Origin: Phoronis australis
Lineage: Eukaryota > Animalia > Phoronida
Assembly (NCBI GenBank): GCA_002633005.1
Contig: NMRA01000039.1
Coordinates: forward strand, 910,335 to 974,334
Direction: 5' to 3'
DNA length: 64,000 nt
Every line of letters starts with the position of its first letter. The first letter of the stretch is position 1. The notes below the pieces were generated by a model, which saw only the letters and a program-made list of their open reading frames with translations, was not told where the DNA came from and searched no databases. Both the position numbers and the translations under genes were made by a program. Below are positions 463 to 38,200 of this stretch, piece by piece.

Positions 463-1012
463 GCCTTTTGCATTACGGATTTAGAACGGTGGACTAACAT
501 TCTTTCTCGACCACAATCATTTTAGACCCAATGCAAAAGGTGATTTGGAACGGTCTAAATTTAGTACGGTACTAAAGTTAGTACACTTGCAAAGACCCAA
601 GTAACGAGCGTACCAAAGCTGGTTCAATTGCATAAAAGCTCAATGCGAAAGGTTTGGTCTGGACTATTTTGCTCGACCATCCTAAATTATCTCCCCACTT
701 CACATGATTTTGGAGTTTTCCAGGCATTTTGCACACTCTTAATGTTGTTGCCATTTCTGTTCACTCACTGTTCACTGTACAATTAAAGTTAAACATGTCT
801 CAAAATAAGAATAGAAATTGGAATTGGTTGTCGGATCCGTTTTGTGGTACAGCGTAGTGACATCTCGAGTATGAAGAAGCTTTAAAGATAAGATGGCGGA
901 ATGTTAGTCCGGTCTACTGAGAATGGTTCCAATTTGGTATGGTGGGTTGTCACGCTGGTCTAAAATATGTTCTGACCACAAACTAATCTGGACTTACTCT
1001 AATGCAAAGGAA
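463..1012. mobile_element. Non-autonomous DNA element (MITE-like)
   Basis: Imperfect terminal inverted repeats gccttttgcatta ... taatgcaaagg, with internal recurring tagaccc/ctcgacca motifs. Confidence 0.45.
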
Positions 1013-1134
1013 GCATTACTGATCCATTCCCATTGACATCTGAATAGAACTAAGCATTACTGATCCATTCCCATTGAGATCTGAATAGAACTAAGCATTA
1101 CTGATCCATTCCCATTGACATCTGAATAGAACTA
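1011..1134. repeat. 41-bp tandem repeat x3
   Basis: Unit aagcattactgatccattcccattgacatctgaatagaact. Confidence 0.95.
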
Positions 1135-1349
1135 ACCACAAGTTAAGGCATTGTTTACTTTTATCAACAGCTTCTGATTGGAGACTGGGGAACAGAGATG
1201 ACTGTTAATGATAGCACTGTGTACACTCATTACACTGTAGGCTGACCTGGCCTGTTACTAGTTACTAGGAATACCCTTAAAGAATTTGAAGATATTCGAA
1301 TGTTCACAGTGCCTGCTGCTGACACTGCCATCATATTGCCTCGTTTCAG

Positions 1350-4300
1350 TTCGCTCTCGTGCTGGAGGTCATGCGTCATTTCGGCATCTTGTTAGAAGTG
1401 CCGTACGTTCGCCGCCAACTGACCGACCCACCGTATTATCTGGTACCAGCCTGTACTCTGTCTGAGAAGTGGTTTTTCCACGCCAAGAAAGAGTCGGAGT
1501 ATCACACGATGCTAATGGTTTGTATGATAACCACTCGACGAGGCAGTGTGGCCTGGTTGATAAGTGCCCGCTTTCTTTACTCGAGGTCGTGGGTTCAAGT
1601 CCCACCAGGTCACACTGCTAAACCCTTGAGCCAGGTTTCTAGCTCCTCAGCTCAGTTTTAACCATATATTAATAAAGCATAAAAATATTTCCAGGTGATC
1701 AGTGCAATGGGTCCACATGCGAGGCCTGCGCACGTCTGGTACAACGTGTATCAGACCGCCTGCAATTATTTTTTTTTATATAATAACCACTCATTAAGGT
1801 TATGTTGGGCCTTATCAACAAGTTTGTACATTTAGACAAATATCTACTCAACTACAGAATTTAACTCAACAGGTGTATAATATACTTTTGAAAGTAGAAA
1901 TTCCGTAGAATTTGATTTTTGACTTTATATCAATCCGTCACTAATTAGGTCACTTGACCTTGCTTTTTCGGGAAATTTAGCAAACATGTAAAGAACATTG
2001 GTTCCATAGCAAAACAACAGGATCAATAACATGACCAAATTTTGTATGATATAAATGATCAAGATAAAATCTCAAAAGTGCTGTACAGTTTCCGAAATTA
2101 TCATTTCGTTTTTGTTGTGTGCAACATAAAATTTTTCCTATTTTTTGATAACCCCAAATGCAACAGTGTATAAAGCATAGTTTCGGAGTTTCCTGTGAAG
2201 CAGGATGTGGTGCCCTTTTGGAGGGTCAGCTATCATAAAACACTTTATACAAGGATTATTTTATTTTGTAGAAATTATTTCTGTGTGAAATGACAAAAGA
2301 TGTTTAAAACCTTTGTCACTGTGCTTACCTTCATCAAATTCTGCCGTTCTAGACGCAAATGTACTGGCCGAAATTTCACTTGAGTCCTACCAAAGAAACC
2401 GACGTGGAAGTGAACTATGATTTCAAGTTTACGATGTGTTACCCGTCCAATTTGACGGCACGGCTTCTCAGGGAAATCGTCAAGCTAGGTGGCGTTACTC
2501 TGCTCTGGTCCAAAGGGTGTCTCGTCACAAAGGGAGCGGTGGAAATATTTATATTCAACAACATGCATGGAGGTCAGCCATTTTGTTTCATTTCAAGGTC
2601 TTTAACAAGTAATATTTCCTTGCAGTATTTCAAGAATACATTTCACAAGTTAACTTGTGCGTTCACAGAGATCAACTGCAACCAGTTTGACCAAAAAGAA
2701 TGTCTCGTCACAAGATACATGTTAATTACTTTCTTTGATTGGCTATCGTACATCGGTCAGAGCATAATTCTGAAGATAAATCATTGGTTGGTTTATCAGT
2801 ACATTACGGACGGAAAGCGAGACATCATCACACTGGTGCTAATCTTGAATCTTAGTCTTGCCGCACTTCTTATAATCTTTAGGGGAAATTACATTGGATC
2901 AAAAACGTAACTGGAAAACCCACCAGGTATTGGTTTATATGCTAATCCGTATTGGTCTTCTGATGCTGTGGCATGAAACTTGGTTTAAAAGTTATTTTAA
3001 TTTGTTGAATTTGAAGTAGTTTCTAGGAATGTGACGTAATCACTTTCCTTCGCTACATTGGATCAAAAACGTAACTGGAAAACCCACCAAGTATTGGTTT
3101 ATATGCTAATCCGTATTGGTCTTCTGATGCTGTGGCATGAAACTTGGTTTAAAAGTTATTTTAATTTGTTGAATTTGAAGTAGTTTCTAGGAATGTGACG
3201 TAATCACTTTCCTTCGCTGTGATGTTAGAGGTCCTCGATTATTTCTGAGAACCAAAAAGCTGTTAATTAAATGTAAGTGTTGGTTTTTAGACTTTTGTGA
3301 AAAGTGAAGTTTATATACTGTACAAGCCAAAAGTATTCACACAAAATGACTGGTAATTCCCCGTCATGACAACTGGACAGAAGCCGAATTTGTAAGAGTA
3401 GTCTCCCCTGATGTGACAGAGAATGACTAGGAATTGACAGGACAGTTAGTAAAGTGGCTAAGCCATGCTGTAATTAGAATTGTGCCGCCGTAATAGTTAT
3501 TACCGGTGATTTTTGCTGTTAACAGAATTTGCTCTCACAATGGGGAATGGTATTACGGTATGTCTGATAACTTTTGTCTCATGTAGCAGTAACAGGGAAG
3601 CAGCCATAAGAATACATCACGGTAATTCTTCATTTATTTAGAACACAACATGGTCGACAAGTGATGTTCTGTTTCGTTAAATTTTTCCTCAAAAGTGAAG
3701 ATTAAAATCATTTAAGTCCATCACAATCATGGTTTGCAGTTTGTAGATGTCATAAAACAACATTTGCTTAAGATCCCATTATTTGCAAAAAGTTAATCAG
3801 CCATTGAAAAATTGAAAAGTGGCCATTTTTACAATTTTTTTGTGTGAAATAAGTAGAGAATTACCCCATACTTCTAATCTTTAATTCATTTATTAATAAA
3901 AGCTGTCAATACAAAATTTTAGCTCACATAGTTTCGAGCAATCATTCAAACAATGGTTTGGTTGCAAACAATTTAGTTTCATGCGTGATTACAGCTGACT
4001 GTGTTAATTTGTTCACAGTAATGTGTTGTATCTGTGTTGACACGATTAGCTTGACAGTTCATTCTCAATTCTTCAGGGACCATTTACCTCAAAGTCCGTC
4101 TAATCTTGCTACATTTGTCACTTGTGGTCAGAGAAGTGACCGAAACATTGTCCTGTAGTTTCTCATGCTACTTTTTTGTTCTGTCTTGCAGTATATGAAT
4201 ATGATGTGGCCAACGGATGGCGTGCGGACTTAGAAATGTTTACGATCTATCTTGTAGTATTGTTTTCGGATACTATCGAGGTGGGAGCCAGAGTAACCAA

Positions 4301-5266
4301 GGGAACCGCTGAAACGATGGCTATAACTCACGAATACCTGTGGAGTGCACTGAATCCCTATCTCCTGTTGATAGAGTACATGGTTGACCAGTATCCATTG
4401 TTAGGGGCCAAGGTCAGTGGTTTGTGTTGTATTGTGGACTCCCCTAAAAATTCTACAGCTTGGGACTGTCTAAAATTTGGGACACTGAAATTCAAGCCAT
4501 AATTGAATTTTCCTGGTGTTGAAGATTGAGCAATTTTGGTGTACGTCATGTTTCTCGAATGTTGGACACTGCAATTTGCATCAACAAAATCAGAAATAAA
4601 AGTAGCTGCCAATTTAAAAAACTCTTCTTTCTCGTAATTCTTGAATTTGGAATGGCCAGTATTGCCTAGTTCTAAAATTTGGTACAAACTCTAACCTTGA
4701 GCAAAATACTTTATTAAGTTTTCACTGTCCCAAACTGGAGAATTTGCACCATGCTCCTGTTCAATAATTTTGTATTGCTCAACATCAAATACATTCTGTT
4801 GCTGTGGCACTTGAATTCGGTGGCTTTTACCCACAATGCTTCACATTTGGCTGGTACTGATACCTTTGAATTCTTGTTTCATACATTTATCATCACTTGA
4901 ATTAATTCAATGCAAGTACAGTTATATACTAAAGACGCATCGTGACATTTTCGATTGGAACAATGTGGGAGGGTAAATACGAGGATTTATTACAAAAAAA
5001 TTAATGTTTACGAATGAAGTGTTTTTTCCTCAGCTTGCAAGTGGTGGTGAATTAACGACAGCTTCAGCTTCTAAAAAGTTTCTCCTCTAAACACAGTTTG
5101 GCGAATGCCTGCGTATTTTTGTTGCAGCACCGTATCCCATGTCCAGGCAACTGTTCAGAATCAGTTGCACATACATTTTCTCCCGTTGAACTGGTGCCAG
5201 GTCAGTCGTTGAAGTGTCCTACCTGCAGTGAACCAGTCGAGGAAAGCAAAAGGATGTTGATGTCAG
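1350..5266 (+). CDS. Roco gene exons 1-4: C-terminal part of a first COR domain
   Basis: Spliced peptide VLEVMRHFGILLEV...YYLVPAC...YWPKF...NYDFKFTMCYPSNLTARLL...LLWSKGCLV...IEVGAR...LWSALNPYLLLIEYMVDQYPLLGAKHRIPCPGNC...HTF...KCPTC. It parallels the downstream COR (LLHLTEAFDLTF...IVPCLL...EWP...YTFDYLPAGLFNRI...IWKTGSLL...YQVPCSEC...CHK) and MFHAS1/LRRK-type COR domains. Confidence 0.75.
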
Positions 5267-8200
5267 GTGAGCAGAAGTTTTAAAGCCCCATACAGTGCTA
5301 ACTGAGTCATGTCAAAGGCACAGATCTCAAACTGCATTTTAACTCTTTATGCACAATAGATATTTGCCTGGCAGAGTATTCGAGGTTTTGTTGAAAATTC
5401 ACGTCTGACATTTCAAACTCAAATGCCAAATCAGAATCGTTTAGTATTTGAGTCCATTTAAACGTCAACAGGTGGCACTGATTTCAAAATGCATTTTATT
5501 TCTTTTTACACGACAGATATTTGCCTGGCAGAGTTTTCAAGATTTTGGTGAAAATGCAGGTCTGTCATTTCAAACTTGAATGCCAAATCAGAATCATTAA
5601 GAGTTTGAGTCCGTTTAGATGTTAACGGGTTAGTAAACACTATTGGTGTATTTGGCAGTGAATGTGTAAGTCATTGAAAGGGGCGTTTGGCATTGAAAAG
5701 GTTCAGTCAAGTTTTGGGTGATGTTTCAGTTCGTAAAAGTGACCTGCCAACTCCACTCAGTCCACACTGGAGACACAAACTAGTCATTAAAAACCTTTTT
5801 AAGAAAGGGATCTCTGCTAAAATGTAAATTTATTAGAACAAATTAATTCATAGAAATTCGAATAGATGTCAGAGTTGCTGTAATGTGAACTTGTCATGGG
5901 AAGACATGATGGGTTATTGCCTGGGAAACAGGATTTTGTCCACTTGTTTTTGGCATGTAGTGTTTGTTCTCGATTTTATAGTGCCACTAACAGTACACCC
6001 AGATTCATCACTGTGGGTACAGTTGCTATCATGACGCCTGGGCTTACATGGAATTCATCCTCACAGTGGTCGTCTGTCATGACGAGGACTGTTGGCTTGT
6101 GTAACTTGGTCACGAGGATAGATTAGTCGGCCAAAATTACCAGTAATGATGGGCCAGGTCATCACCCATCACTTTCATTGCAAGCAGAATTGCCCATCCC
6201 AATGGGAAACGATATATTTTGTCCACATGCTTTTCACGTGTATTGTCACTAATGATTGAAGAACAAAAAGTCCAACTGACATTGAAGTTTCAGTACATAG
6301 ACTATACCTGATTCAGTGTAAAAATCTTTCAATTTGTTCCATCAGGTCGAAAGCGAGTGGCGCACATTCATCAGTGGGTCACAATCGACTGGCAGGTCAC
6401 GTGCACGATGTGTCAGAACTGCGTGAAGCCCCTGCAGGAACTGTGTCCTTACAACCACATTGGAGACGAGCTGAGCTGCCGGTGTGTCAACTTTGGATGG
6501 TGTTGTCGTAACTGTGGCATATGCAGGCGATGTTCGGCACTCCTGTGGGTAAGTCGTGTATCATGCGTCTGTTTCATTAAAACTGATTCAAGAGTAAAAT
6601 CAGAAATTTTGTCTTTCGCTCCACAAATGATTGAATCTCACTTGAACAAAAGTACAAAGTCTTTTAGAGTATACACATATTTATTAAGTGTTAGTTTATG
6701 AGGTAATCTTTATGAATTACTTATAGACTGTGATGTGCACACAATTTCTTGTTGACTAAACCTTTCTTTAGCAGTTGTGAAGTGGGTGTGTATGACCAAA
6801 TGTTTATCTTAAATCTTAACAAGTCATTTTTCAGTCCCGAGGGGACAAGTGGCTCCTGACTTAAGTCAGAAATTTTGACTTATGCTCCCATGTGTCAATT
6901 ACTGATTAAAGTTTTCTTCATGAATGTGTTACCACATCGCAGTCTAGAAATAATTTCTGAAAATTGTACAAGCATCTCAAGTAGCAATTGTGTATGATAT
7001 TTTCATGCAACTTGTACTTTTGCTAAGGTGAGGTATTTGTTCTTCATAAATTGTGAAGCATGAGACGAAATTTCTGATTTAAGGCTTATGTCACTTTTCA
7101 TGAAATGGACACCTGGGGTCGGTGCACTTGTTTGTATCCCAAACTTGGTCATACATCGTCAGCTGCCAATCTGAAGCTGAATTAAAGATACTCTCGTAGC
7201 GTCATAAGCTGCGTAGTGAAAATTACTTGTAGTATTTATTATTTGCCCCTTCAACACAGCATGAAGCCTTTTCAAAATAAAAATAATTTCATTTAGAATT
7301 CTTAAATTTAATTTTTGAATTGTGTATGCAACCAGCACAATTTTAGTGACATCTTTGGGTTGATGATGCTCGTCCCTTGTTCTGAACTGTTAAAAACAAA
7401 GGGTGGGGTCTCTTTAAAATGACATCCATGAATATAACGCGACAATTATTCATATGCTTTCTTAACTTTAGTACTGTTGCATTATGGCCTGAATATACAA
7501 CTAGTCAGCATAGTGGCTTAGAATTTTACAAATAGATGATTGTAAATCATGGGTGTTGTTCCACACAATAGGCTTTTTGAAACTGAGATGCAAAATCAGT
7601 GAAATAGTTCTTTGTAAACCCTGATCTAAGTCATACCACCGGTTTATGGTTCTGACCGATAAGATACTTGTTTTATTACCCCCTATGCGTTCTGAACATC
7701 CAAGCCCGGAATTTGGATTGAACTACAAGTCTGTAACTTGACGTGACACCTCCTCCGTATTTCAGAAAATGGACAAATTTTTGTATCCTTCCTTCACGTC
7801 TGCTAGCTTCACTGCTATTGCTCCATCTAGTGGCCAACTTTCAGGAAACATTGTTTGCCTGCCTGACGGTAGTACTGAAGATAGGTATGTCTCGTTAACA
7901 TCGGTAGTATAAGGCCCATTATTCAGATAGGAATATCGTTGTTCCAATGTCCAATTCACATCGTTTTAAACATTAATTTTTAAAATTTTTGGTTACTTGT
8001 TCTTCGAATATACAGTAATGCTATGTCACAGATTCTTTACTTTAGGGCTTAATCTGATGGAAAAGTGTAACTTCATTTTATTCATCAATTTTGCATTTTG
8101 TCCATTAGATCTGAGGTTAACTGTCCAAGAGTTGGGTTACTTTTACAATGTACAGCCAGAGATAATTGTAAAGCTTAAAAGCTGTCTGTGATGCTAATTT

Positions 8201-11200
8201 TGGGTAGTGGAGCTGCAACTGGCTTCTACCTAGTAGTTTTAACTCGGTACTAAAGTCCCCTCTCGTATAGAAGGTAGTTTGACCCGAAACTTATACCAAG
8301 TCTTTGTTTTGTACTTGTCTTCAGCTCAATGACTGTGGCGTGCAGCAATGCCTTTTCAAAGATCAGTCACACCACCCTGTGCTTGGTAATTCTTGATGAA
8401 GGACCGGTGACGATAACAATCGACAAAATGTAAGCTATTATACAACCAAGGCATATGCAATTGCCAATGCAGTGCGCGACTCTGATTAAGTGGCCTCCCT
8501 TTACTAGTTAGGTGGCACTAATGCGGTGTTGTCAGCGCTTGATTGAAACATGTATCACAGTTAGATTACGCGCTGATGCCGTGTAGCTGTGTCCTGAGCA
8601 AAGCGTGTGAGCTGTGATCCTTCAGTTGGCTCAGCTGTACAAATAAGTATGTCAATCATGGTTGGGAGGTATCGTGCGATGACCTAACATCCCGTCCAGG
8701 GGATGTCGAAAGACTTTCACTTGTTCATGCTACAGATAGCTTGATCTGTAACTGGCTCTGATGGCTCATGAACTGGTCTTTCTTATATCAATTCAACGTC
8801 TGTCATGAAAAGGGAACCAGTAACATGCAGTTAAAGGGTCAAAGCACCAACTGGGAACAATTTGTCGGTTCAAAGAACCTCACCTGTGAATTCCGACGGA
8901 TCGAGGTCTGTCAACTTGGTTTTGTCAGTTCTTGGCAATCCCAGAAATCACGTTGTATCCGAGCTTGATATAACTTGTGTGCACCCACTGGAACGTGCAT
9001 GCGTCTAGTTTATTCAACGTTAACACCTCTTTCGGGTGTTCAGGTTATGTGGGTCCCTAGAAAAATTTGGCGCCTAATGTTCATAACTTCATGTCTCAGA
9101 AATGGTTGATTGTATTCATGTGAAACTTTCAAGTAGTATACTTTATACATTGTTCTCAAAAATGTTTTTATATCATTGTTTTCTAAATGTTCGGTTTTTG
9201 CACAAAGAGTTATCAAAAATAAGTCTTATTTATGATTTTTATGAAAAATTGCTTTAATTAAAATGCAATTAATATTGTAGACAATTGTAACAGCACTTTC
9301 GAAATATTAGCTTCAACATTTGTATCAAATGAAATTTGGGCCTGTTATTGATGCGTTTTTATAAATTTTACTAAAAGTAAATGGTCACGTTACTCAATTT
9401 ATGACTGATTGGTGTAAAGTTAAAAATCAAAGTCTACAGGTTTTCAGCTATCAGAAAATATACACTTTGCCAAGTTAAATCCTAAAGTGTTGTAGGTATT
9501 TCACCTAATTCACGGATTTGTGGGTAAGATTCCAGTACGTAACCTCACGGCCTTCAACTTTGTGGTAAAATTTCAGAGATCCGAGATACAAAGAAGCAGA
9601 CGACGAGATAGTATTTAAATTTGAAGCTCACACTGGAACCCTGACAACCGAAGGTCAAACAAGGTCACTTGGAAATGAGGCTGTGTGCCACACGGGTGAC
9701 ACATTGATTGTCGAGGTGGTCAGAGATTACGAAAAGGTCGTGGACAAGAAATTGGTTAGTTTCTTGTATTTTAGTTGATTTTCGTGATAGGTTTATATTT
9801 TAATCATAGCTCACTTGAAATTCTTAGAATGTCTCTTACACTCCTGACGATTGCTCTGTTACACTGTCTTACAGTCATTTTTTCGTACTGTTGAACTGAG
9901 GAAGAACAACTGTCTGCTAACCACTGCTGAACTTTCTCACGGATGTGGTTCAACGATAACGTTGTCATCAGACGGGGAAAAGAAGCCAAGAGTGATCATT
10001 TATAGTCCATCTGCAATGGTATGTTGATTAGTGTCGTCTGAATCTGATTTTCTTACATTTTGAAAAGTTACGGTAAAACCTCACAAATTTAGGGCACAAT
10101 GTGGCAGACAAGTGCAAAATTTTATAATTTTTCCGTTTATTTTCAATTTTTGCCAAAGATTGGTAGTGTAAGGTTCATGCTTTTCCATGTTCATGTTCTG
10201 TACCTTATCTATCAATATTATGGGAACTCCCAACAATTTTAAAGAAACATTTGAAAAATGATAAAAGGAAATTTTGGTAAGTATTTTCACTTATAACTAA
10301 TAAGATTTCCGTTTACTTTAAGCCCCTTGCCTTGTCTCACTCAGTATGAACCATAATGATATTTTTGGGAGGAACAATGTAATGATTGGATTTGGCAGTT
10401 ACTCTCACTTTGAGGTGCAACTTGTTTCCTGGCCTGCCGTGAGCATTGTGCTGTTTATTCCCTCCTTGTTCCCACTCCAATGGAAAGAACAAAAGCATCT
10501 TGCTGTTGACCCAATTTTTCTAATTCTGGTGTGCAAGGAAGGGCGATTTGACATGAATATAACCCAATTTCGTAGTTCACGGAGTTTTTGAGATGTTTGC
10601 CGTTTTTATGTGAATTATCTCAGGCAATTTGACGGCGTCAGGATCACCAAGAATTTTAAAAAATGCCAGGAAATATCCCACTACTTCAAATCTATATGGA
10701 ATGCAGATACCAGTCCATCAACTACACCACTGCGTATTTCTTCATGTCAACGGTATATCGGAAAATGAATAAACTTCATTCATCTCTGTTCCAGACTTTG
10801 ACATCTGCTCACTTTGATGCTGGTGCTGCGATGATATTTCATACGGGTGTAGGGAACACGTGGTCTGTTGGTCGCATAGCCACCATTACTGAAGACGGAG
10901 ACCTGGTTTTGGCGGATGACAAAGGGAGCGAGTATAAGTTCAAGGTGACCTCTGAGAACATCTTGCCGGCTTGTTTCTCGCAGGAGCTGAACTTGTTGCT
11001 GAATGGAGGTTTGTTGAAATTGATAGAAATTATCCAACCTTTATTCACAGTAATTAATAAAAGAAGCACTCTTTGGGGCAACAGTAATTTTCTTAATTGT
11101 CTTTAAATCTTTAATTCCTACATTGTTGCAAATTCTCAAAATTTTACCAAGTGTTGTTAGTTTTACAGTTGAATAGAAAAAAACAAGCGGATAATGAAGC

Positions 11201-14200
11201 AAACTTTGTACTCATCTGCCATCCGGTGTCAAACTGTAGTATTTTCCTGTGAGCGTGCTCCATCTGGTGACAGATTGCCACCCACCTTGACTTTTTTATG
11301 TATTAATCAGTTTTTGTTACTTCCCTGTAAATTAGCTTCGGGAGCACTTCTTAGTTAGCGCATATCAAGTACTGAGGTTCAGGTTGTCTGTAGTAATGTC
11401 CAGTCATGTGACCATACACACATGGTCTGTGTTATTGACCTGCTGTAACCTCACTCTAAGGATGTTTGTCTTGAATGTTTAGCTGAGACAGTGTGACTAT
11501 AACACCTGCAATATGCTTTATTTAGAAAATCTCAAGGACGAGGTCATTGGTTGTAAAATCATCACATTTATATCTTGTTCAGTGGCCATTCCTGCTGCTG
11601 AATATCTTACCAGGTTTTCTCCATTGTTTTATAGTGCAGGTTGCCTGTTGTCAGCAATACACTCACACACAACACACACACATGCACACAAACGCACACA
11701 AACCAAGTATAAAATAATTATCTAAAACCTTTCATCCTCAGATTTCCAGGGTGGGTAAGTTCTTATCAATGCTTGGGGAAATTATCAATTAAAAGGCCAG
11801 GTGACTTGGGGTCCATAAAGGGTAACGATGAAATTAACAGCTTACTCGTTGCCAAGCTATTTAAGATGACCGGTAACGCTGAACGAGAGTATGTTGTAAA
11901 TGTATCCAAAAGCTCCATGAAAATAGAATCCTTTTTATGATGCTATCAGACATTTTAGACATTTTGCTTATGCTGATTTACCATCAAAAAAAAATAATTC
12001 TTTGCCACCATCTGACGCCAGTTCTTGTTGTGTTTAGAACCTTGTGTAGCTGAGAAGAAGCTGGCCCAGTATTTGCTAAACCATGGCTACACAACACCCC
12101 AGTGGTCACTGTTCAACTATAGCAGAGGGTTCCAACCACACAAGCCAGTTAACACATGGTTCTGTTCTGAAGGCATCTACAGTTACCGAGGTATTGTTAA
12201 AGTTATATTGAGCACTGTTTGAGTCAGTTAAAAATTAACTAAGATAAAATAAGAATAAAATGCTTTCTAAGACAAAAATAACACTTGTGTACTTCATTCT
12301 GACCACGGTATAATGATAGAAAACAAGGCAGCATTGACACGCCTTATTTGAAAACTTGCTTTCGGCTTTTGCAAAATTAAACCAAAACATTTGTCGCTTG
12401 CCATTGTGTCCTGAGGTGATATCCACGTTACCGAAACTGCACTCAATACCTTTATGTATTTTGCCACTGTTTGATTCTTTGTCAGTGTGATCTCGTGTTA
12501 AATGTTATGACCACAAGAAGGCACTGGTTGTTGAAAGATTCACTAATAATGTAGTTCTCGTTTAATACGAACTTATGATAATTGTCTGTTATTCTGTGCT
12601 TGAGTATGTTATACGTGATTATGCAAACCACTGTGTTGTACAAATTTGCTCGTGATAGCCCCTAGATTAGAGCTATAAATAACTCAAAATTTCTAAGTCC
12701 AGTATCGAACGTATGGGTTTAATGTTGTGGGTCATCAAGTGCAGAGTAATATTACATAATCGTCCTTGTAAACCTTGATGTACTCGAGCACAGAATACTA
12801 AGAATAACTGTCAAACATCTTGAGTTCATGCAAAATGTAGAATGGAAAATCTAACTTCGAGTTTGATCTTGATTAAGAAGATCAGATCCCAGGTTTGAGT
12901 GGTTATTGCACCATAAGGACTTTTACTTGAAAACAGCTCCATAATCATTGGTACACCTTATGGCCTATACCTTACCATGCACATTGTTGGTAAATGTCAA
13001 GGTAATATTCATACACCTCTTTACCAATGGTGCATCCCACACACAGCATCAGAGTGTCATGAACTATATTTTGTGCTCAGCTTAGCTGGACATGTTAATT
13101 GGTTTTTGCTAATGTACCTAAAAATTATCCAAAGTCTAAAAAGTCACTTAGTGTGATTTCGCATTTTAATTTTCTACATGAACGCAAGAAACATGTAAAT
13201 GACCTCCAAAAATAGAAGGTTGCATTGTTGCAATTAAACAACAGCTAGGTTTTGTAATTAGTTTTATGTCAAGCATGTCAGCAAGATAGAAACTCAGTTA
13301 CAAGAGAAGTTTTAACTTAAAAGCCTTCTCAAAACTTTCATGCTTTTTAAAGTCTTCTATTTTTGATGTGGTTTTGAGTTTTCCTCCATTAGACTTGGTA
13401 GCGATATGATGCAGATATAACTTAACAAATTGATTGTCCTTTGATTTTTTTCTCCACTAACGTCTGTGAGTTATTTTCACTTTCAGCTATTCAAACAGTC
13501 ATATCAAATTTTGGGGTTCGCTCCACCAAAGGTTTCAAGCCCAATTTCGGAATCGCCTTGCTTCCGTTCATGGACTTCAACAGATATGTGCTGGTACCCT
13601 CACGCCAGGTCGCTCAGAACTGGGAGAAACTATCTTACATGCTACTGTGCCCAGGTTCATCGCAGATGGGTAAGTTTTGGGTATGCTAAACTTGATTCAC
13701 CTGCTACTTACCCAGAAATCCACTGTGACATTTGGCGTACCTTTACTTCCAACTGGTGGCTAATAACTCAAGGTAATAGGGCCGTCCCGGGTTACATGGT
13801 GATAGAACTTTCCTTTGTTTCGGAAATTAGAAAGCACGTGACCTCGTTTTAGAGATCAGGCACATTTTCATGTCTCTTATTGATGTCGAGATGGAAAAGA
13901 ACTTCAGATCACGCATCCACTGGTTTGTCCAGTTTATCAAACATTCTCACATCGGAGTTGCAGCCCACAGGACTGGAGTAATACTTTGTTAGCATTGGAA
14001 GGACGTAGAGAGTAATGCAACCGAGAAAAACTTGTAAAGAATCGAACAACAACAAATAACGTGTGAAACTCCAGTGGCTCGAAAACGAGGCAGAAAATGT
14101 GCCTGACGGATGCTTACGGCATTGTGGGTAAATACAGAGAGATTCAAGTACCGCTGTGTAATCCAGGATGGGCCTATTTGTCTATTGTGGTGTGTCCTGG

Positions 14201-26200: not shown

Positions 26201-29200
26201 AAACAACCCTAGAAGCACACCGTTTGCGGTGCATTCGTGGGTGCATTTCAACGCTCCGCGTTGCTCTTGTCAAAGGTGTGTTCTTCTTGTCATTTTTCAC
26301 AGTACTCAACAGACATTATGAAATCTACCAAATATTAAAGTGCAAGCAGTTCAGTTTGGTCAGACACCTTTTAAATCATCCTCAAATTAATTCTCATGTC
26401 ACATGCCGTTTCTGTTCACCGGTCCTATTCACTGCTAGCAATTCGGCACGAATATAATAACTTTATTGGGAGTACTAAGGCCACCGGCCCTTACACATTT
26501 AATTTTAATAAGCATCAGCGGCGTCCAAATGTGATGGACTTTCATAAAAATAATACACAACATTATAATCCTTTCTCTTCTAGCAAGGAATACAATGAAT
26601 ACCCACACCAGGACTTCATCCTAATGTGAGATGATTCATGGATGTGTCTGGGAATAGGTTCCTTAATTCTGATATGTATCCTGTATTTCAGCTGCCTGAA
26701 GAGCTTGAAGGCTTGAAGAATTCTCTCATCCACCTAAAAGTTTCTGAGCCTAGTCTCAAGGGGGCATTGCCTGAGTGGCTAGCCAAGTTTCGACGCCTTC
26801 GTTACCTGCAGCTTGACGAGTCTTCTGTCTCTGCACTGCCAGAGAATGTTGGCGACCTGCCACTGATGAACTTGACCATGAAAAATTGTCCAATAAGAAG
26901 ACTGCCACCAAGTTTTCAAAAACTAAAGGTTTGCATTATGGGGCTTTACAAAATTCTTGAGATACTTGCAAAATAATGTAGTGTAACTGTAACCATTGCT
27001 TGACATAGCGTAGTAAAAGATTGAAAGTGCGACATTTTAGGAGCCCAAATCCGTAAATACGAGTGGCAAACATGCCGTCACTCGTATTTTCAAGCGGATA
27101 TTTTTGCCCAAGTCAAGTGCTGGTAATGCATTTTTGTTGTGACGTAGTGTTGTTATATAATAACAATCACTAGAATTTGTGATGAGTATTTAGTGACTAA
27201 TTATTCCCATAATAAGCGAAATTATTGTCATCTAATTGATACTTTCCTCGTTTCAGAGACTGTCAACTTTAAAAATTCCCGGCATTCCTTGGCCTGCCTG
27301 GCAGAAAAACAAGACATTCTTTTCCATGAATGAATGGAAAAGTTATTGTGAACAAATTGGCTACTACAAATGTTACGAGCCACAGGTTAGTAAATACCCA
27401 GCACGTCAATTTGCTGAAATATGTTACAGAGAAAATTCTCCAGTTGGGAACAAAAATAAATTGATGGAAAATTTTCTTCCTAAGTTGTTCTTTGGTGGCA
27501 TGTGAATGGAAGAAGCCATGCTAACATTGTGAAGTAAGAGTTTCCTTTGTTAGAATTTTTTTGTGAAATTCGTGACAAAACGAAATTTCACTTACCTGTC
27601 GTGTTGTGTCCTAAAGTTTTCTCTACTGTACGTTTTGTTTGATGGTACAAAGTTTCTTTTTAGAATTTTTTTTCGCAACAATGGCGCATTTTATTGATAC
27701 ATGTGCAAACTTGGCAGTTCATACTCACCCATCTGGCTCAGTACCCAATGCTCTCTTAGACTAATTTTTATCACTGAGAGAGACAAACATTTGATTACAT
27801 GGGACTACGGATTACTGCATTTTGTTGTTTTTGCTGACACCGTTTCCTACGTTTTGCTTGGAGATTTTTAGTTTTCCAGCCATGTGTGGACTAATTGGGT
27901 GCATGATTCTTACAACCCAGCTTTGAGTGTTATAAAAATTCATTGTTATTACAGAGGAATAATGTTTGTGAAACACATAATTGTGCAGTTGAACTAAAGC
28001 CAAAGACAATTTTGTAATTTGTTCTGGTCTGTTTTTTTTTGAAAATTGATGTTGTGGTGTGTTAATTTTAGTTGTCTATGTTTTCAAAAATATTAAGTTT
28101 TCCCAGGGTTGCCTGTTGCTAGTTGAGATGGGGTTGAATTATTTTTTTCTATAACAATGAGGCACAGGTTTCAGAATGAGTTGAGTGCATTCGTCTGGAA
28201 TTCTTGTTTTCTTCAAACAGTGAGACACAGTTTTCAAAATGAGTTAAGTGCAGACTCGAAGTAACTTTGCAATTCCTGATAGAATCTTGTACAAATTTTT
28301 ACATTTCATTGTTTACTGTTTTGACAGGAGGATCTTGAAGCATGGTTCCAACAGTTTGAAGTTGAACCTGGAAAGCTGGACTTCTCTGGCTTCAGTGATT
28401 TTGTGGACTTCCTCATGTGGAACGTCCCTCGGTTACAGACAGACCCAGAAACCAAGACATGTATGTACATTTTTTAACACAACTTCACCCGTTCTGTTGA
28501 CCAAATACTATTAAAATCAGTTTGATGAGAAGTTAATCATTGGTAGGTCTACCAGGGGAACATCACCAGGACCATGTATCATCTTATGGATGAGCATCCA
28601 CAACATATTGGTAGTGATGTCGAGAAAGGGAAGACTAAAGAGAATGAGATTCTAAACTTGGCAGATGAAAAGATATGTATACTTGTCTTGTATAGAATCT
28701 CATCAGACTTTAGTGTATGTGTTTTTGGATTTTCTTTATTGGTTGTCTGTAGATTAGTATGCATGTTTGGCTTTTCTGTACCTCTTCAAAGGACTAACTG
28801 TCAGGCTCTATTGTCATCGAAGTGGAGTCATTTTTGGACATCTTCGTTCCAGCAATAAGTTGAAAAATGGCCAGAATCTAAGAATTCACTGTGATGGACA
28901 ATCACTGCCACGAGGGAGTAGGACCCGTGAGAGCTTGTGGAGTTGGAAGTGTGGCACTGTGGTTGAAGAGTCAACTTCTTATCAAAATCTACGTATGACT
29001 GTATCTTTTTAATGCCCTTCATAATTTGCTGGATTCTCTGCACACAAAGATTATGAAGACATATGGAGATGAAGATTTCTTGGACTGGATTACATGTGGG
29101 TGTCTTACTCATTGACCTTTCAGATGACATGCTTGGCATGAAGAGGTGTTATCAGTCAGTCTCTGTCTGACAAATTCAATTGTGTCAGAGATGTTAGGTA

Positions 29201-32200
29201 GTTGACTTGGTCTGGTATCATGATGTTGGTGATCCAGGAAAGGTATCGTGATGGTGAACAAAGGCTCTTCAACGTACCGAGAGCTGCCACAACTGAGACA
29301 TGATACCTCTGGTCGGTGATGGTGGAGTCTTTCATTTCCATTTTGATGCTGTTCAGTGTGTCACGCAGTAATATATGTCAATCCTCTTGTCTTACATTGC
29401 CATAGCGTGGGAAATGTTCTTGAATTTCACAAATCAGCTTTTGAGGGATCTTCATTAATCTAGAAGGTCTGTTCGTGCACTAGAAGAGTCCCGATATCTC
29501 TTTCAGTATTGGGGTTGTCTTTGTTTCATGGATGTTGTCTTTGAAGCCTGGTACATGTCTAAAAGTCTGTAGCACTGAGTTGCCAATTAGCACAAGCTGC
29601 CAGGGTTGTGGAATGACATCATAGACAGTGGAGCAGCTGACTCTACGTTGACATTCGAGGGCATGGGGAGTTGCGAAGTCTCCGGACTATGGACCAGACA
29701 TCAGTGGGTTAAACCAGTTTTGGGAGTACTCAACCATCGCGTTTCCCTCGCAACGTCTGATTCTTCTGTCACTTGCACTCTATGAAATGATTTGCTCGAC
29801 CTGTTAATTAAGCCATATGTGATAGCGTGCGCGTAGGGCCACTTTCCTGCAGGTCTTTAGGGTTGACTTTCTCAGGTCCTTAGAGAGGCCAAGAGTCATA
29901 AGGCGTAATCTGGCTGAGTCATTGTAGAAGCCATTGCTGCTGACTTAGACAGGAAAGAAGTGGGTTTCCCAACCATGATTTCTGCAATGTGAGACTGAAA
30001 CTTCATACTTGACTTTCTTCCTTACGTTTTCATTGGACAGATTTTCTTCTGACGGTACAGTCAGATCAATGAGGGTGATAGTCTTTGTCTTCTCTGAGAA
30101 TATGATGATGTCAGGCCCTTTGTCTGAAGCGGCAATATGTGGAGGGAATACAATGTGATGATGGAATTCCTCATCCATTACTGAGTACTAGTTGTTTGAG
30201 TAGTATAGGATGTTTATAGCACTGTCTCTTGTCATTGGCAAGTCGAGGTGCTTTTAATGTATTTAATGCCATGGGCAGACTCGAAGCGACACTATTCTCT
30301 ATGTTATTGGCTGCCTCTTCTTAAATCCAGAACATTTCTATTGGTTTGTCTTCTACAGAGCTCGTTTATAATAAGGTGACACTCTCTGTCTCCCAGTACT
30401 TTAACTCCGTTCCATTTCCGTGACCGTGCTTTCTTAAACAAACTTTCATTATAAAACTGTTGAGTACTCGGATACTCAGAGTATTCGTTCAAGTGGTACT
30501 TTATCACCTGCATAGACTTCAAAACCGTGGTAAGTCGTGTCAGCTGGAGGCTTTATTTGTTTCTGCTTCTGTATAGTGCACTGGCTGTTATGATTCTACA
30601 CAGACCAACCCATTTGTTTAGGAACTTTGTGCACATAGCTTCCAGTCCCTTTGCGTAAGAGATGGGAAAGTTGTATTTAATGAATTCCCACGTTAGCTGG
30701 TAAGTGATAGCGTGGTTATACATCCAGAGGTGACACTTTCTGGTCTTTCGGAACATGTCACTTAACTTGAGTTTGACTTTGTGTTGAATCTCCTCATCAC
30801 TTACATTTAGATGATTGAGCTTTCCCAGGAATTTCATTGGTTGACTTTATGGATGCATTTGACATCTTTCCCATGAATCTTCATTTGGCGGTCAAATATA
30901 ACATACTGATAGTCAGGACCAGACATTCTTGTCATAGCCAGAGAGAAACATTTGGACATGGTATTTGTTGTCTTTGTCATCAGTTTTAGTTTACATTTCC
31001 TGCTTCTTTGATTGACTATGAAATTTGAAATATGCAGTTACCACAGCCTCAGATAAGCAATGAATCACAGTAACCATAATTTCTAGGCAAATATGATTAG
31101 ATCCATTGGTTACCTGTTGATAACTCTGAATGGTACCTTTTTGTGTTGAGGAGGTGTGGCCTAGTGGGATAAGTGTCCGCTACCTTTATTCAAGTGCATG
31201 GGTTAGAGTCCCACTGGGGCACACCGCTAGGCCCTTGAGTCAGGTCTCTAGCTCCTGTGCTCGGTTCAACTATTATATATATTAAAGACAGGTTATGGGT
31301 TCCTGGTAATCAGTGCAGTGGACTCGCGTGAGTGGCCTGTACATGTACCAGACACCCTGCAATTATTTTTATTTCCTTACTGTGTACAGGTGGTGGAGTT
31401 CCTCCTGAGATATTTCATTGCCAGTCACTGAGAGTTTTGGAGATGCAATATCAGGCCTTCACAGAGATCCCAGAAGACATCTGTCATCTCCGACGAATTG
31501 ACGTCTTTAACGTGGCGCACTGCAAACGACTGGAGAGAATAAATGAAAAGATTGGCGTTCTTAATCTAAGAGGTAGGTTGGATCTGAAATCCATTATAGA
31601 AATCTTGGAAGGTGTGAAATGAGACAAGGATGCTGTGATGTTATAGGTTTGCATCATGCCAATGTAAGTAACATCTATCCAAAATCAAACTGCTAGCTTA
31701 ATTACTGAACAGGCGATCACCTGAGTGACACTTTCTGAATTGTATGAATCCTATCTCACAGATCTATACTCTGAGATACGCTCACATTGACACAGGTCAT
31801 TGATATGGGACCCCTATAATAGGTAGTGTTACAATCATATGACGTCGTTCTATTATTGATAACAATCTCGATTTGTGAGCTTGTATTGGTTTCTTGTACA
31901 AGTCTTTGTATGTAGTTACTCAAGAAGCTTTTATCTATTTATTTATTATTGTAATATTTTCAATGAGGGCACCCCCATCAGTTCTCACTGCTTTCCATGG
32001 GGGCCTTTTACGAGCTCACAATTCTGTTTTACTTCATACTTGCTGCTTAAATGCAAATTTATCGATAGCAGTGGTCGTATTTTTGACATTTAGTATTGAC
32101 AGTGACGATATCATAACGATATCATAATGATAACCGTGATACTATTTTTGGTGACCATCATTTCCCAACCTGCAACCTTACTATGAATGCTCTTTACTTG

Positions 32201-35200
32201 TTAGGATTTATACAATACGCACTCTCCTCAGATATGGATTTCCATGACTAGCTTCTCTTGTTTGGAGATTGTGGAACATATAGATGTCATTGCTAACTGC
32301 TGCATGTTCATCATAACGTTCTCTCCCACCCACTTTAGACACTGCGCACTATGAAAACTGAATCCATCATTGAAAATTGAATTTTTTTCATTATTTAAAT
32401 GGCAAAATCCTTTAACTGCAAAAGAAATGAGAAATAATGCACAGTCATGGAACTGCTGTTTCTTTGTTGTGATGTCTCTTCTTCTATCGCTAAAGACATT
32501 GGGCAACTTGACTTGAAAACACCACCACTTGTCAATCAGAGTGATGTTGGTACTGCTGAAGACTAGTGTAGTGCATTAAAATTTGAATGACTGTACTAAC
32601 ATTTACAGTGCTGGCGCTGGCAGACACGCCAAACCTTCATACCCCGCCCCAGGAGGTGGTGTCTAAGGGAATGCATCAGACCATAGTCTACTTGAAGAGA
32701 CTGGGGGAGGGGTCTCGGGCGTGCATGAGAACCAAGCTGATGTTTGTTGGTCTGGGCGGAGCAGGAAAGACTAGGTGAGTGGTCAAGGTTAAGCCCTGCA
32801 ATGTGCAGTGTTACCTGAGTGTGTACGATGACTGTTCAACTCTACACTTAGCTCAGTGCAGTCTTCACACCCTGTAAAATATTGAGCAATGTGCTCGGCA
32901 TTACTGAGTATTGGTCAGTTATGATATTACTCAGTACTGTTCCAGCATAGCTCAAGATTATTCAGCGTTCACTTATTAACATTGTTTGTTATATTGCTTA
33001 GAAATGGTTGTAACATTGCTCAGTGTTAATGAGTTTTGCTCAGCGCTGTTCAATGTTGCTCAGCGTTGTTCAGTATTTCTCATGATTGTTCAATATTGCT
33101 CAACGTTGTTCAGTATTGATCAGTATTGCTCAGGAGCTCTCAGTAGTGCTAAGGAGTTATCTTGGGAAATCGGAGAGGGAGGGATATCTTTACCAGCTTG
33201 AAGGGCATTTGAGGAAGAGCAGTGCTCATTTTGCCCATTTTTGGAAATTTCCAGTATTGTGTGACTTGAGTTTTCGACTGGAAGCATTTCTGTTACAATT
33301 TATTTTTATTTGTAGACTTGTGAATGGTACTTAGGTGCAGATATTTATTTGCAAACGTTTTAGGCTAAATCATCCTTCTTCCACAGACGATAGCATTACC
33401 ACATTGGTAAGCAATGATGTCTTACTGTCACACTTTCCTTTCATTTACTTTAATGATAGAATTGACAGTTGCTCTCCTTCCTTCTTAGTTTAATGCGGGC
33501 GCTCATGTCCAGTGATTACAAAGCACCGATTACTCAGAATGAGGCTATCACGGACGGCATTGACATCACCACCTGGACCATCTCACGGAACAAAGAGACA
33601 GTCAGCTACAGGTACATTAGCTTGAAGCCTCGTTTATAAATCTTGTCATTGTGCAAATAATCTTCAGCATGATCTTGCAGCTGGGATCTGTCCTGAGATG
33701 ACTGCCAGGTCTGGTGTCTAGCTGAGTATTTGTCTGTGTGCATGAGTGGACACAAACCACCAATCTGTTATTGTTCCTATTCACGGGACAATAGGGATGC
33801 AAGGCGATTACATCTTAAGTCAGCCATCTTGATTATAAACCATAGCTAGACGACATAACCACTAATAATTTCGGGATTTGTTTAAAAATGTTTGATATTA
33901 AAACATGATGTTTTGAGGATGAATGTCAGTGTCAGTCATTGGGGGAAATGTGCAAAACCTAAATAGTTTTTTGATTGAGTATTTTAAATATCTCAAACAG
34001 CTTCACAAACGCAATTGCCTAGTTTTAACCTATCAATAACTGCAATACATGAATCCGCCAAAACAAAACTGGTGAACAGCATGTGGTTTCTGTTCCACAT
34101 GGTAAGTGAAAATTTGTAGCCACAAGTGACTCAGGAGTATCTCATGTTACAAAATACAGCATTGAATATGAGCAATCTTCACATAAACCAAATTTTTACA
34201 CGCAACACTGTCCTTGGTGCATTTCACAGTTGTTCCTCTTTATTTCCAGTGTGTGGGACTTTGCCGGCCAGACCCTGTACTACCATACCCATCAGTTTTT
34301 CCTGTCATCTCGTTCCGTCTACCTTCTCATGTGGAACACTCGTCTCGGTTTCGAGCATGCAGGCCTTGACTTTTGGCTCAGCAGTATCCGGTGCCATGCC
34401 CCCCAGGCACCAATCTTCGTTATTGGAACCCATGCGGATAAGGTAAATTAGAGGCTACCCCAGCCGGTCAATTTTTCTCTTTGTCCAGTAGTTATCCTAG
34501 AACAGAGTAGTGGTGAAATTCTGATTCAACCATCCTGCAGATCCTGTTGTGTGCATGCCAATTATGAAATCAGTTTTAAGTTTTATTGGCTCTGCATGGT
34601 AGTGCTTCACTAGGATTCCATGTCTCTTTATAATATGGTTACAGGTCTCCAAGTCCGAACTGCCTACAGAGAAACTCAAAGAGAAATACCCCTCCATTGT
34701 GAGTTTCCACCTCATCAGCTCACTGACGGGTCAAGGGGTCGAGAACCTCCTGGACAGCATAATTAAGGCAACTCTTGAACAACCGTACATTGAAGAGAGG
34801 ATTCCCGATGCCTGGCTGAACTTTGAGAGTGCCATCTTGGGGAAACGGTCAACAGAGAGTGTGATGGATTGGAGTGTAGTGAAGCAACTGGCTTCGGTTA
34901 GTACATATAAGTTCTTCACTGTGAGGGACGGGTACTGTGAGGGTCAGGGACCCTGTAGGGTCACAATTACAAGTGTGTTTAATTAAAGGTATATTCCTGG
35001 AATTTTGTCAGCTGATTAGTTTCTATTTTCATTGAGCATGGTACAGTAAATTGACATTTTGCCTAGTATTCGCTCACAATGTTGTGACCTGTGTGGAGGA
35101 ATATGCAACTGGTGTCTGACATCATCTCCAGCCAGTCAATTGGGACTATCTCTTGATTCCTTGCAATAAACAAGTAGGGGACAAACAGACTTGTTGACAT

Positions 35201-38200
35201 GGTCACCATCGTCCAGCTGTCATTTGCAGACTCTGAGGCATCTATGGCCGGTTGCATGAAACAGTCCAAAATAGGGACTCAATTAAGGTCCCTAAATCTT
35301 TTGCGTATTTTTGTCTTTATGGACTCACGGATGTAATGTTTTTCTATCATGATTTCATCTTTATTATGAGCTCCTCTTTGATTAATGACAATTTCTAACA
35401 ATATAACTAAACACTGATCCCAGAGTTCATTGAAAATAAGTAAGGACTCAGTCCTTAAATTGGGGGTGTTGCATGAAAAGATTCCTATTTTCAACAGTAT
35501 TGACAATTCAACTTGGAGTTCACTCCAGAAGTTGACTTAGAAATGAAGCTAAAACAAAGGGCAGTCGATGTTTTCACAAGTCCAAAAATACGCAGCAGAT
35601 TTAGGGAACTTTGTTGAGTCCCTATTTTGGGACTGTTTCATGCAACCGGGTACTGAACCCTCCACACATGCTCTCCACCTCACAGAGTCTGCTTGAGTTG
35701 ATTGTCTGGGAATTATGTCATAGGGCAGGTTTCCAGGATTCATTTATAAAATCCATTGCTGTGCTTGTCTTAAGACCTTCATCTGTTAAACTTTGGTAGT
35801 AATTGTCTCCATTTTTCTTTAAATAGCAATCGCCATCCTATGAAACCACATCTTTGTTGTACTTGTTTAGTGTTGGATGCTATCAATTATCTTCACTTTT
35901 GCAGAAATGTGGTCTCTTTGACGATGAAGTCAATCAGGCAGTTCAGTTCATACATGAGCTGGGCTCTATCCAGCACTTCCCGAATGAAAGGCTGAGGAAC
36001 AAGGTGGTCATCAACCCCCAGTGGATTGTTGATGTCATGGCTTGTGTGGTGTCAGTGCACAACTCTGTTATACAGGTAGGAGGGGCATTACATCCAGGAG
36101 GGAGGGGTATCTACTTGTCTGGCAGGTTGGTAAGATGTAAGGGGAGGGGTCTCTGATATAATGGGTTATATCGTGACAGTACACAAATCTGTGATACAGG
36201 TAGGAGGGGCATTACAGTCATCTAGAAGGGAGGAGAATCTACTAGTCTGGCAGGTTGAAAAGATTTAAGGGGAGGGGTCTCTCATGCCATGGGTTATATG
36301 GTGTCAGTACGCAAATCTGTGATACAGATAGGAGGGGCATTACATCTAGAAGGGAGCAGTAGCTACTAGTCTGGCAGGTTGATGAGATCTGAGGGGAGAG
36401 GTCTCTGGTGTAATTGCTTGCATGGTGCCAGTGCACAACTCTGTCATACAGGTAGGAGGGGCATTACATCCAGGAGGGAGGAGTCTGCTAGTCTGGCAGG
36501 TTGATGAGATCTGAGGGGAGGGGTCTCGGATGACCTGGGTTGTGGGGTGTCGGTACACAACTCTGACATACAGGTAGGAGGAGCATTACATCCAGGAGAG
36601 AGCAGTCTCTGGCAATCGTCATACAAAAACATAGATCCAGAGGAGTTAGATTTAGAAGGAAGTGGTCTTTGTTATATGGATAGGTCGAGTTGAAATGATG
36701 TTTCATTCCAAAACTCACAAGTACAATACTGAGCGGTATTAGATGGAAAAGTGTTTGATTCAAAACTGAGCCTCTCCTTTACAGAATGGTGAGCTGAAGC
36801 ACAGGGACATTGGCGTTATTTGGAAGAATTATGACAACGCACTACACACATGGTTATTGCATCTAACAGAAGCCTTTGACCTCACGTTCCCACTGGGTGA
36901 TAAACCAGTAAACATAGTGCCTTGTCTACTGCCGCAAGTGCAACCGCATGTGAGTGTCCAGTGTTGTGAAACTTATACACCTCATATTGGCTGTCACAGA
37001 TCTGGTTTTGTTACTTTGTCTGTTATTGACATTGGTGTTGTCATTCCGAGTCAATGAAACATTAAGACTTGATATTCGAGTTGTGAACAGAAACTGATGT
37101 TAGGTTGTCGCTTTTTAAGTTGAAAGTGATCTTCATTTCTTCTAAATTCATTTTAGTTTGAATAACTAGCAGAAAGTGGTTTTCATTTGTTTTTAATTCA
37201 GTGAAATTTGAATAAGTAGCAGAAAGCGGTCTTCGTTTGTCATTAATTCGAAATTGGTTTAATTGGCAAGCAGAAAATGAACTTCATTTGCCTTGATTTC
37301 ATTGTTATAGTTTTAACAACAAACAGAAAGAGGACTGTTCTTTACTTTCTTAACATTCATTGTAGTTTGAATGGCCTGATGTACGTGGTGAGAAAGACTT
37401 ACGAGAGACAAAGATAGAGTACACCTTTGACTACTTGCCGGCAGGTTTATTCAACCGTATCCAAGTACGGTTGAGCGAGTTCTCTGACCAGGCGACCATA
37501 TGGAAGACAGGCTCGTTGCTCAACAAGAACAGCCATCTTGCCCTGATCATGCAGAAAGGCGATACGGTGGTCATCGTCAAAGTTCAAGGGCCGCGACCTG
37601 AGAACATCCTCCTCCTTATCCATGAAGTCTTTGAGAGCCTAATTACGGAATCTTTCCATGGCGTCAGGTATGAGTACCAAGTGCCATGCTCCGAATGCAT
37701 GGAAGCGAACCTAAAAGAACCGACCATGTTCTCGGCGGGGGTCCTGCATAGTGCTCTGGAATTAAAGGCCATGTTCTTGCAGTGTCACAAGCGATTCCAT
37801 ACGCTTTCCATCTCGCATATTCAAACGACAATGCCACCTGATTCAACGACTGACTTTGACCTTCACCTTCAGAACATGGTGCAAGATCTTGGCAGTCTGC
37901 AGAATAACTTCCCGATAGACTTATTCTTTCTGTACTGTGCTAGCAATGCCCCTGCGGATGAGGCGTCGTGTTCGTGGGTTCACCCCAAAGTCGTGCAACG
38001 GGATCTTGAAGAAGCTGGCTTTACGACAACCTACATAATGAATCTCAAGGAAGAAAAGTTGGATGATGTTGCCATTCGCATGTCGGAGTCAAAAATTGTT
38101 CTCGTTTTCATATCAGATGACTTTGTCGCTGATGAGACGTGCCAGCGAATGTTCCGTCATGTTAAAGAAAACCTGAAGAAGCCCATATTACTACTGGTTG

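Follow-up and report, generated by a model that had tools for sequence, protein, structure and literature searches.

We describe a gene of the phoronid Phoronis australis that very likely encodes a Roco protein whose single chain holds two ROC-COR units. Unit 1 (ROC1-COR1) is predicted from its relatives to fold normally without GTP-binding motifs, and unit 2 (ROC2-COR2) is intact. Most of the gene lies in the stretch analysed here (the window), 64,000 nucleotides of intron-rich animal DNA with a GC content of 34-45% (contig NMRA01000039.1, positions 910,335 to 974,334). One open frame of 36 GT-AG exons (1350-44765, + strand; 2,283 amino acids, single terminal stop) encodes in order the second half of COR1, a Cys-rich domain, a linker, leucine-rich repeats (LRRs), ROC2-COR2, two TIR domains and a CaaX-like end. 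The full protein is very likely a single Roco chain of roughly 3,000 residues, and its doubled-module architecture is well supported as both real and conserved.

An earlier note on this DNA had read exons 1350-5266 as the C-terminal part of a COR domain more divergent than the COR downstream, and both points are borne out. Exons 1-4 taken singly gave no Pfam match to COR, and exon 2 gave no usable match in the ESM Atlas. When spliced (249 amino acids) they matched the family COR-B1 profile with E = 7e-30 and the COR-A1 profile with E = 8e-8, both built without the window sequence, and the canonical COR-B profile with E = 3e-4. In a profile-profile comparison (hhalign) the N-terminal COR matched the canonical COR at P = 97.8% (E = 1e-12 over 238 columns; 0.2% for the reversed control). 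The two COR-A parts paired with each other, as did the two COR-B parts, in the same order, and reversed controls stayed <0.5%. The region upstream of COR1 in relatives aligned to the ROC profile with P = 84.7% over 108 columns (reversed control 1.0%). Mean identity across the same 75 proteins was 19% for COR1 vs 56% for COR2 and 17% for ROC1 vs 64% for ROC2. COR1, as judged from its sequence, is a real but far diverged COR. Canonical ROC and COR profiles by themselves find unit 1 weakly, and annotation therefore misses it.

Protein searches returned at least 142 distinct relatives (the last search giving the best 120 of 145 matches). A full canonical ROC-COR was present in 129/142, and 125 of these 129 carry more than 200 amino acids upstream of it. 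Of the 125 N-termini, 87 had COR-B1 and 79 had COR-A1 by an iterated, ortholog-seeded profile, which makes the doubled layout a family trait and not an oddity of the Phoronis australis genome. Among N-termini of at least 1,500 amino acids, COR-B1 was found in 73/75, and the other two have COR-A1. Carriers of unit 1 include molluscs, annelids, a brachiopod, nemerteans, a flatworm, rotifers, the nematode Plectus, a hemichordate, lancelets and Trichoplax. Pieces of unit 1 were also seen in flatworms (P0209 and P0186 from the parasitic monogenean Cichlidogyrus, P0143 from Macrostomum) and in the rotifer Brachionus (P0214), and three of these four seem to carry the dynein-type insert described below.

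Structure models were made for proteins of relatives, not for that of the window gene. For Lingula P0085, 1,003 residues from the N-terminus were modelled with AlphaFold2 (26 sequences; predicted local distance difference test, pLDDT, 65.6; predicted template modelling score, pTM, 0.68). LRRK1, CtRoco and LRRK2 filled the top 31 ranks listed by Foldseek for this model (LRRK1 E = 2e-12, CtRoco E = 2e-11). By VIA-align its COR matched the CtRoco COR 3dpt_B (Z = 13.1, root-mean-square deviation (rmsd) 4.3, 273 residues aligned), its ROC1 the small GTPase 2q3f (Z = 12.7, rmsd 3.0, 153 aligned) and its LRRs FBXL2 (Z = 13.8, rmsd 2.4, 143 aligned). These FBXL-type LRRs ahead of unit 1 were seen in relatives only. 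Unit 1 has both COR-A and COR-B, and unit 2 is a ROC GTPase with motifs G1-G5 and a COR directly after it. Unit 1 almost certainly descends from a true Roc-COR.

For an active ROC GTPase we take the P-loop GxxxxGK[ST] and DxxG to be the defining motifs. The P-loop occurs in 0/62 aligned bilaterian ROC1 segments vs 129/129 ROC2. The 62 segments were recovered from 77 upstream regions; five members of the window gene's clade are among them and Trichoplax is not. P-loop-like matches in P0053, P0087 and P0109 fell outside the aligned ROC1 position, and the GTPase at the N-terminus of P0095 is of the Rho type and was not counted as ROC1. The window gene's own ROC1 would, as the earlier note had supposed, lie upstream of the window, which weighs against carrying this result over to it; a first ROC is seen in orthologs. 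Going by those orthologs, the ROC1 of the window gene very probably lacks the motifs.

In part of the family a dynein microtubule-binding domain (PF12777) sits inside ROC1. It was found in P0080, P0085, P0088, P0099 and the paralog P0048 (5/11 relatives scanned), and a profile of the insert itself added P0138 (6/142 relatives). The best solved match of P0085 residues 436-576 was axonemal dynein 8glv (E = 1.5e-16), and in the P0085 model the insert has pLDDT <50 in places. Five of the seven relatives in the window gene's clade carry the insert, from which it may be presumed in the window gene as well. No AAA domains were found in orthologs bearing PF12777, so these are not dynein heavy chains. 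The insert is not unique, since unnamed proteins other than dyneins carry dynein-type domains in tandem; P0144, P0146, P0197 and others have 4-5 such microtubule-binding domains in a row, with no motor evident at their lengths.

The earlier note had ended the gene at 37840; the gene reaches 44765, with a TIR-TIR-CaaX end that had been missed. No kinase was found in the window exons or in 11 relatives scanned, and TIR_2 follows COR2 where LRRK1/LRRK2 have kinase and WD40. On single window exons TIR_2 scored E = 0.001, below the Pfam cut-off, while full-length relatives pass it. The window gene carries LRR, Roc, COR and TIR_2 together, the combination of a Novel Gene 1 (NG1)-like protein. We take the catalytic Glu of helix C to lie at the position that it has in SARM1-type TIRs. 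TIR2 has Glu there in the window gene and in 124/125 relatives, and TIR1 has it in 1/125 (Trichoplax P0093), with Met in the window gene. TIR1 is therefore predicted to be inactive and TIR2 to be catalytic (NADase-type). A Cys fourth from the end is present in 108/142 relatives, partial proteins included, and a C-terminal prenyl anchor is predicted.

How the two units work together can be approached through known Rocos. CtRoco is mainly a dimer without nucleotide or with GDP and a monomer with GTP (PMC5714945), the dimer is made via the C-terminal part of COR (PMC6337361), and the control of the Roc-COR cycle by dimerisation is still debated (PMC6337361, PMC5714945). Bacterial LRR-AP-GTPase-COR proteins bear C-terminal effectors (PMC8195603). 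Because of this dimer/GTP cycle and effector architecture, unit 1 can be pictured as a stand-in resting partner. The ROC1-COR1 unit, predicted to be dead, may be a built-in regulatory partner of the intact ROC2-COR2, and ROC2-COR2 would gate the predicted-catalytic TIR within the one protein, a reading to which we give not quite an even chance. The protein would be prenylated at the membrane, where COR1 would cover or compete for the COR2 dimer surface, mimicking the resting dimer of a GTP-free bacterial Roco. A signal at the LRRs together with GTP loading of ROC2 would release the hold of COR1, and the freed TIR2 would cluster and then cleave NAD+ or recruit adaptors, like bacterial LRR-Roc-COR-effector defence proteins. 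That unit 1 regulates unit 2 by direct contact in cis is somewhat less likely than not. Three observations count against it. A one-chain model of P0066 containing COR1 and ROC2-COR2 (pLDDT 79.4, pTM 0.53) folded each COR well but gave no confident relative placement; the low conservation of COR1 and ROC1 is not what one would expect of a tight, obligate COR1-COR2 interface; and about 600 residues separate COR1 from the LRRs. P0066 was chosen as its gene model brings COR1 close to ROC2-COR2; it makes weak evidence (28 sequences, no ROC1, about 630 amino acids lacking from the gene model), and the structure matches cover the canonical half only.

Nearly as likely as the regulatory-partner reading is that the dead unit works independently, as a scaffold that localises the protein or senses something. 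It would serve as an anchor (in the window gene's clade perhaps to microtubules, through the dynein-type insert) or bind a ligand, while ROC2-COR2 homodimerises between molecules; this too we rate somewhat below an even chance. COR2 is three times more conserved than COR1, the pTM of the chain with both CORs is the low value just given, large inserts, the dynein domain among them, are tolerated in unit 1, and the middle domains differ among paralogs (MBT, SPRY, PLAT and C2 by Pfam), all of which would suit a scaffold. Against it, 75 relatives have retained both COR subdomains along with the ROC fold, which goes beyond the needs of a simple tether, and the rarity of the dynein insert across the family also speaks against it.

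The earlier note had proposed a double Roco, which holds for two ROC-COR units but not for two working switches, the P-loop count in relatives pointing to a dead-plus-live pair. It is accordingly very improbable that GTP is still bound by the ROC1 of the window gene and that each unit activates the other in cis. In both Trichoplax records (P0093, P0290) ROC1, placed by position, keeps the P-loop and a G4 nearly identical to that of ROC2, and the ancestor may have bound nucleotide; the Trichoplax ROC1 nevertheless has no G3 motif, and the 62 bilaterian segments, those of the window clade included, are uniform in lacking the P-loop. P0093 and P0290 are the sole relatives seen with a ROC1 P-loop and the best candidates for the ancestral state.

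The exons almost certainly encode one gene. A single BLAST alignment spans model residues 1-2150 vs residues 667-2797 of Lineus P0080, and others join residues 3-2150 to Capitella P0088 and 59-2157 to Paralvinella P0112, in keeping with the proposal of one polypeptide with two CORs, whose frame continues phase-matched and stop-free through the LRRs into ROC-COR. The linker by itself matches P0112 (E = 7e-23). The 34 aligned exons are colinear with six orthologs from four phyla, save for short or gapped ortholog models. In a FastTree phylogeny of ROC2-COR2 rooted on Trichoplax, from which no order of events is claimed, the window gene groups with P0080, P0085, P0088, P0099, P0112, P0138 and P0009 (support 0.995).

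Three raw-read RNA runs (X1, X2, X3), chosen by species label, were mapped on 1-11600. In the bins of exons 2-10, X1 and X2 had a depth of 0.1-3.4, and first mates lay on the minus strand; assuming a stranded library of the usual type, this is consistent with plus-strand RNA. Depth was similar and low all along exon 2 to exon 10, and four of six non-repeat intron bins were at or near zero, the exceptions being 2710-3096 and 11224-11600; the low one-strand depth at 11224-11600 (X1, X2) lies outside the gene model. The RNA also holds points that tell against a single gene: no exon-exon joint was among the rows listed for 1-11600, where repeats fill the joint table, X3 had no exon depth in the same interval, and the RNA evidence is confined to 1-11600, with none for 11601-44765. 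Because no exon joint is among the rows listed, the single-gene call rests mainly on homology. The least probable alternative, that the chain is an artefact joining a pseudo-Roco gene, which would lie upstream and stop behind the Cys-rich domain or the linker, to a separate LRR-ROC-COR-TIR gene, draws on those missing junction reads, on several linker exons that depend on frame and weak similarity and on half-only database models such as Liolophura P0156 (1,348 amino acids, unit 1 only) and Brachionus plicatilis P0214 and P0029, but it is very improbable given the end-to-end colinearity with the six orthologs, the lack of a stop or 3' end between exons 5 and 17 in the gene model, the similar low RNA depth from exon 2 to exon 10, the fusion of both halves in 73/75 long relatives and the many short database models flagged partial.

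The 36-exon frame is a 34-exon model (without the last two exons; 2,161 amino acids, 0 stops) with an adjusted exon 16 donor and the two last exons added. Exons were chosen by eye and with a profile of the six orthologs, and their ends were required to have AG/GT and matching phases. Pfam searches of 28 open stretches found LRR, Roc, COR-A, COR-B and a weak TIR_2 across 22439-40511. Exons 2, 3, 5 and 10 match the ortholog profile (E = 3e-13 to 8e-5), the top match among 1,781 reverse-strand peptides used as a chance control having E = 4.8; exons 1, 4, 9 and 12 match weakly (E = 0.08-0.44), exons 6, 17 and 20 have E = 3-13, and exons 7, 8, 11, 13-16, 19, 34 and 36 have no match to this profile. 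The weakly matching and unmatched exons were placed by frame, splice sites and ortholog alignment (exon 36 by frame and splice sites), and some exon boundaries may be off. Under a splice-site scoring matrix trained on exons 17-34, 10/16 acceptors and 13/16 donors of exons 1-16 rank with about the top 6% of decoy sites; the remaining sites score middling, and exons 1 and 15 have weak donors. Three further candidate exons, near 9496, 11525 and 11741, were excluded as there is no space for them in the orthologs. The AG/GT-bounded open stretch 11525-11611, outside the gene model, is a possible alternative exon, and tandem copies of the exon 26 end and donor at 36040-36620, within the following intron, are possible alternative donors.

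All features of the gene are on the + strand. Exon 1 (1350-1517) encodes the second half of the COR-A of COR1; the exons before it fall upstream of the window, and no recognisable exon was found in the three forward frames of 1-1349. Exons 2-4 (2353-2572, 4192-4412, 5128-5266) encode the COR-B of COR1, including Cys pairs. Exon 5 (6346-6548) encodes the Cys/His-rich domain after COR1, which is probably zinc-binding, matches P0085 (E = 2e-12) and is common to many relatives. The linker comprises exons 6-9 (7766-7884, 8325-8429, 9577-9754, 9875-10018). Paralogs P0073 and P0113 have a SPRY domain downstream of COR1; the two linker exons scanned in the exon 6-9 region gave no SPRY match, and that label is unconfirmed. 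Exons 10-11 (10795-11008, 12038-12190; ortholog profile E = 2e-10) are MBT-like by eye and by position in paralogs, with no Pfam match to MBT in these exons and the label likewise unconfirmed. An unnamed family domain precedes the LRRs in exons 12-16 (13487-13669, 17081-17223, 18716-18778, 19540-19728, 21277-21417), and its profile matches 45 other relatives. The LRRs occupy exons 17-22 (22493-22624, 26692-26928, 27257-27385, 28328-28460, 31390-31572 and the start of 32609-32774, to 32700), and this region (22493-32700) carries an insert that is EF-hand-like in relatives. ROC2 (32701-34896, exons 22-25; PF08477) has intact motifs, with the P-loop at 32749-32772, switch I at 33547-33564, G3 at 34254-34271, G4 at 34425-34442 and G5 at 34717-34731. 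COR2 (35905-37840; exons 35905-36075, 36785-36949 and the 5' part of 37366-38335) matches PF16095 (E = 7e-12) and PF25497 (E = 8e-29). TIR1 lies at 37900-38335, its Met standing in the motif at 38131-38151 where TIR2 has Glu, and TIR2 at 38904-41114 (exons 38904-39131, 40336-40490, 40989-41114), with Glu kept in the motif at 40392-40409. The C-terminal exons (41565-41759, 42410-42667, 43683-43774, 44146-44342, 44602-44765) encode a conserved unnamed domain, and the CaaX-like end (44751-44762) is within the last exon.

Tail to tail with the Roco-TIR gene lies a probable gasdermin gene, with a pore-forming domain exon at 58666-58896 (- strand; PF04598, E = 9e-7, above the cut-off) and likely further exons about 46700-63000; the other eight stretches scanned gave no gasdermin match. 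Intron 20 holds a decayed retroelement-like insert with a ubiquitin hydrolase fragment (28831-30846, - strand; PF00443, E = 5e-7), and intron 12 a zf-RVT fragment of a non-LTR (long terminal repeat) element (16028-16378, - strand; E = 0.007).

The window gene shares its LRR-ROC-COR order and intact ROC2 G motifs with Chlorobium tepidum Roco (3dpu, 6hlu), Methanosarcina Roco2 (4wnr) and human LRRK1/LRRK2, and in models of relatives both units match CtRoco, Roco2 and LRRK structures. Unlike those Rocos, it has two ROC-COR units per chain, the first predicted to lack nucleotide motifs, a TIR-TIR and CaaX-like end in place of kinase-WD40 and, in its clade, the dynein-type ROC1 insert. That insert matches the axonemal dynein microtubule-binding domain (PF12777; 8glv, 2rr7), but in the relatives it sits in a pseudo-GTPase fold with no AAA motor, and microtubule binding is putative. 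Bacterial counter-invader proteins (PMC8195603) are alike in having an LRR sensor, a GTPase switch and a C-terminal effector; unlike these LRR-AP-GTPase-COR-effector proteins, ours is an animal protein of about 3,000 amino acids with a doubled module and a predicted membrane anchor. LRR-Roc-COR-TIR and MBT-bearing forms are known in anemones, Aplysia, oyster and Trichoplax (PMC5094078, PMC9334734, PMC4104024). Actiniarian NG1 (PMC5094078), Aplysia LOC101848126/LOC101845043 (PMC9334734) and the Trichoplax MBT-ROCO-TIR (PMC4104024) probably belong to the same family. LOC101848126 is our relative P0040, with COR1 at 245-429. The text of these accounts, figures and supplements apart, describes one ROC-COR and names no first unit, pseudo-GTPase, dead TIR1, CaaX end or dynein insert. 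Full-text literature searches gave no report of a doubled Roc-COR, of a COR-bearing Roc pseudo-GTPase or of a Roco with a dynein domain. This result does not extend to figures (Fig. 1 of PMC4104024, Fig. 2 of PMC11378527, Fig. 6 of PMC9334734), supplements (architectures in Table S10 of PMC5094078) and subscription papers such as Marin's Roco surveys, any of which could show the first unit. PMC6321704 mentions neither ROC nor COR, and a match in PMC3128523 was to the words 'second cortical'. The doubled-module architecture appears to be unreported.

The boldest form of the regulatory-partner reading, which as a whole is unlikely, is that an ancient family, from placozoans to lancelets, would hold a Roco dimer in one chain, the dead Roc-COR locking the live one in cis until GTP frees the TIR NADase, with an axonemal-dynein-derived domain tying the switch to microtubules in the window gene's clade. 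If true, nature would offer, in a single chain, a model for the asymmetric dimer that is under debate for LRRK2. The finding re-annotates a large invertebrate family labelled 'serine/threonine kinase' or 'uncharacterized' in databases as one with no kinase in the relatives scanned, a hidden pseudo-GTPase, paired dead and live TIRs and a predicted prenyl anchor, and suggests that the family is an immune switch inside the cell, a counterpart to NLRs and bacterial LRR-Roc-COR-TIR proteins. A dead and a live unit kept from Trichoplax to lancelets lets one ask what role a GTP-incapable partner Roc-COR plays.

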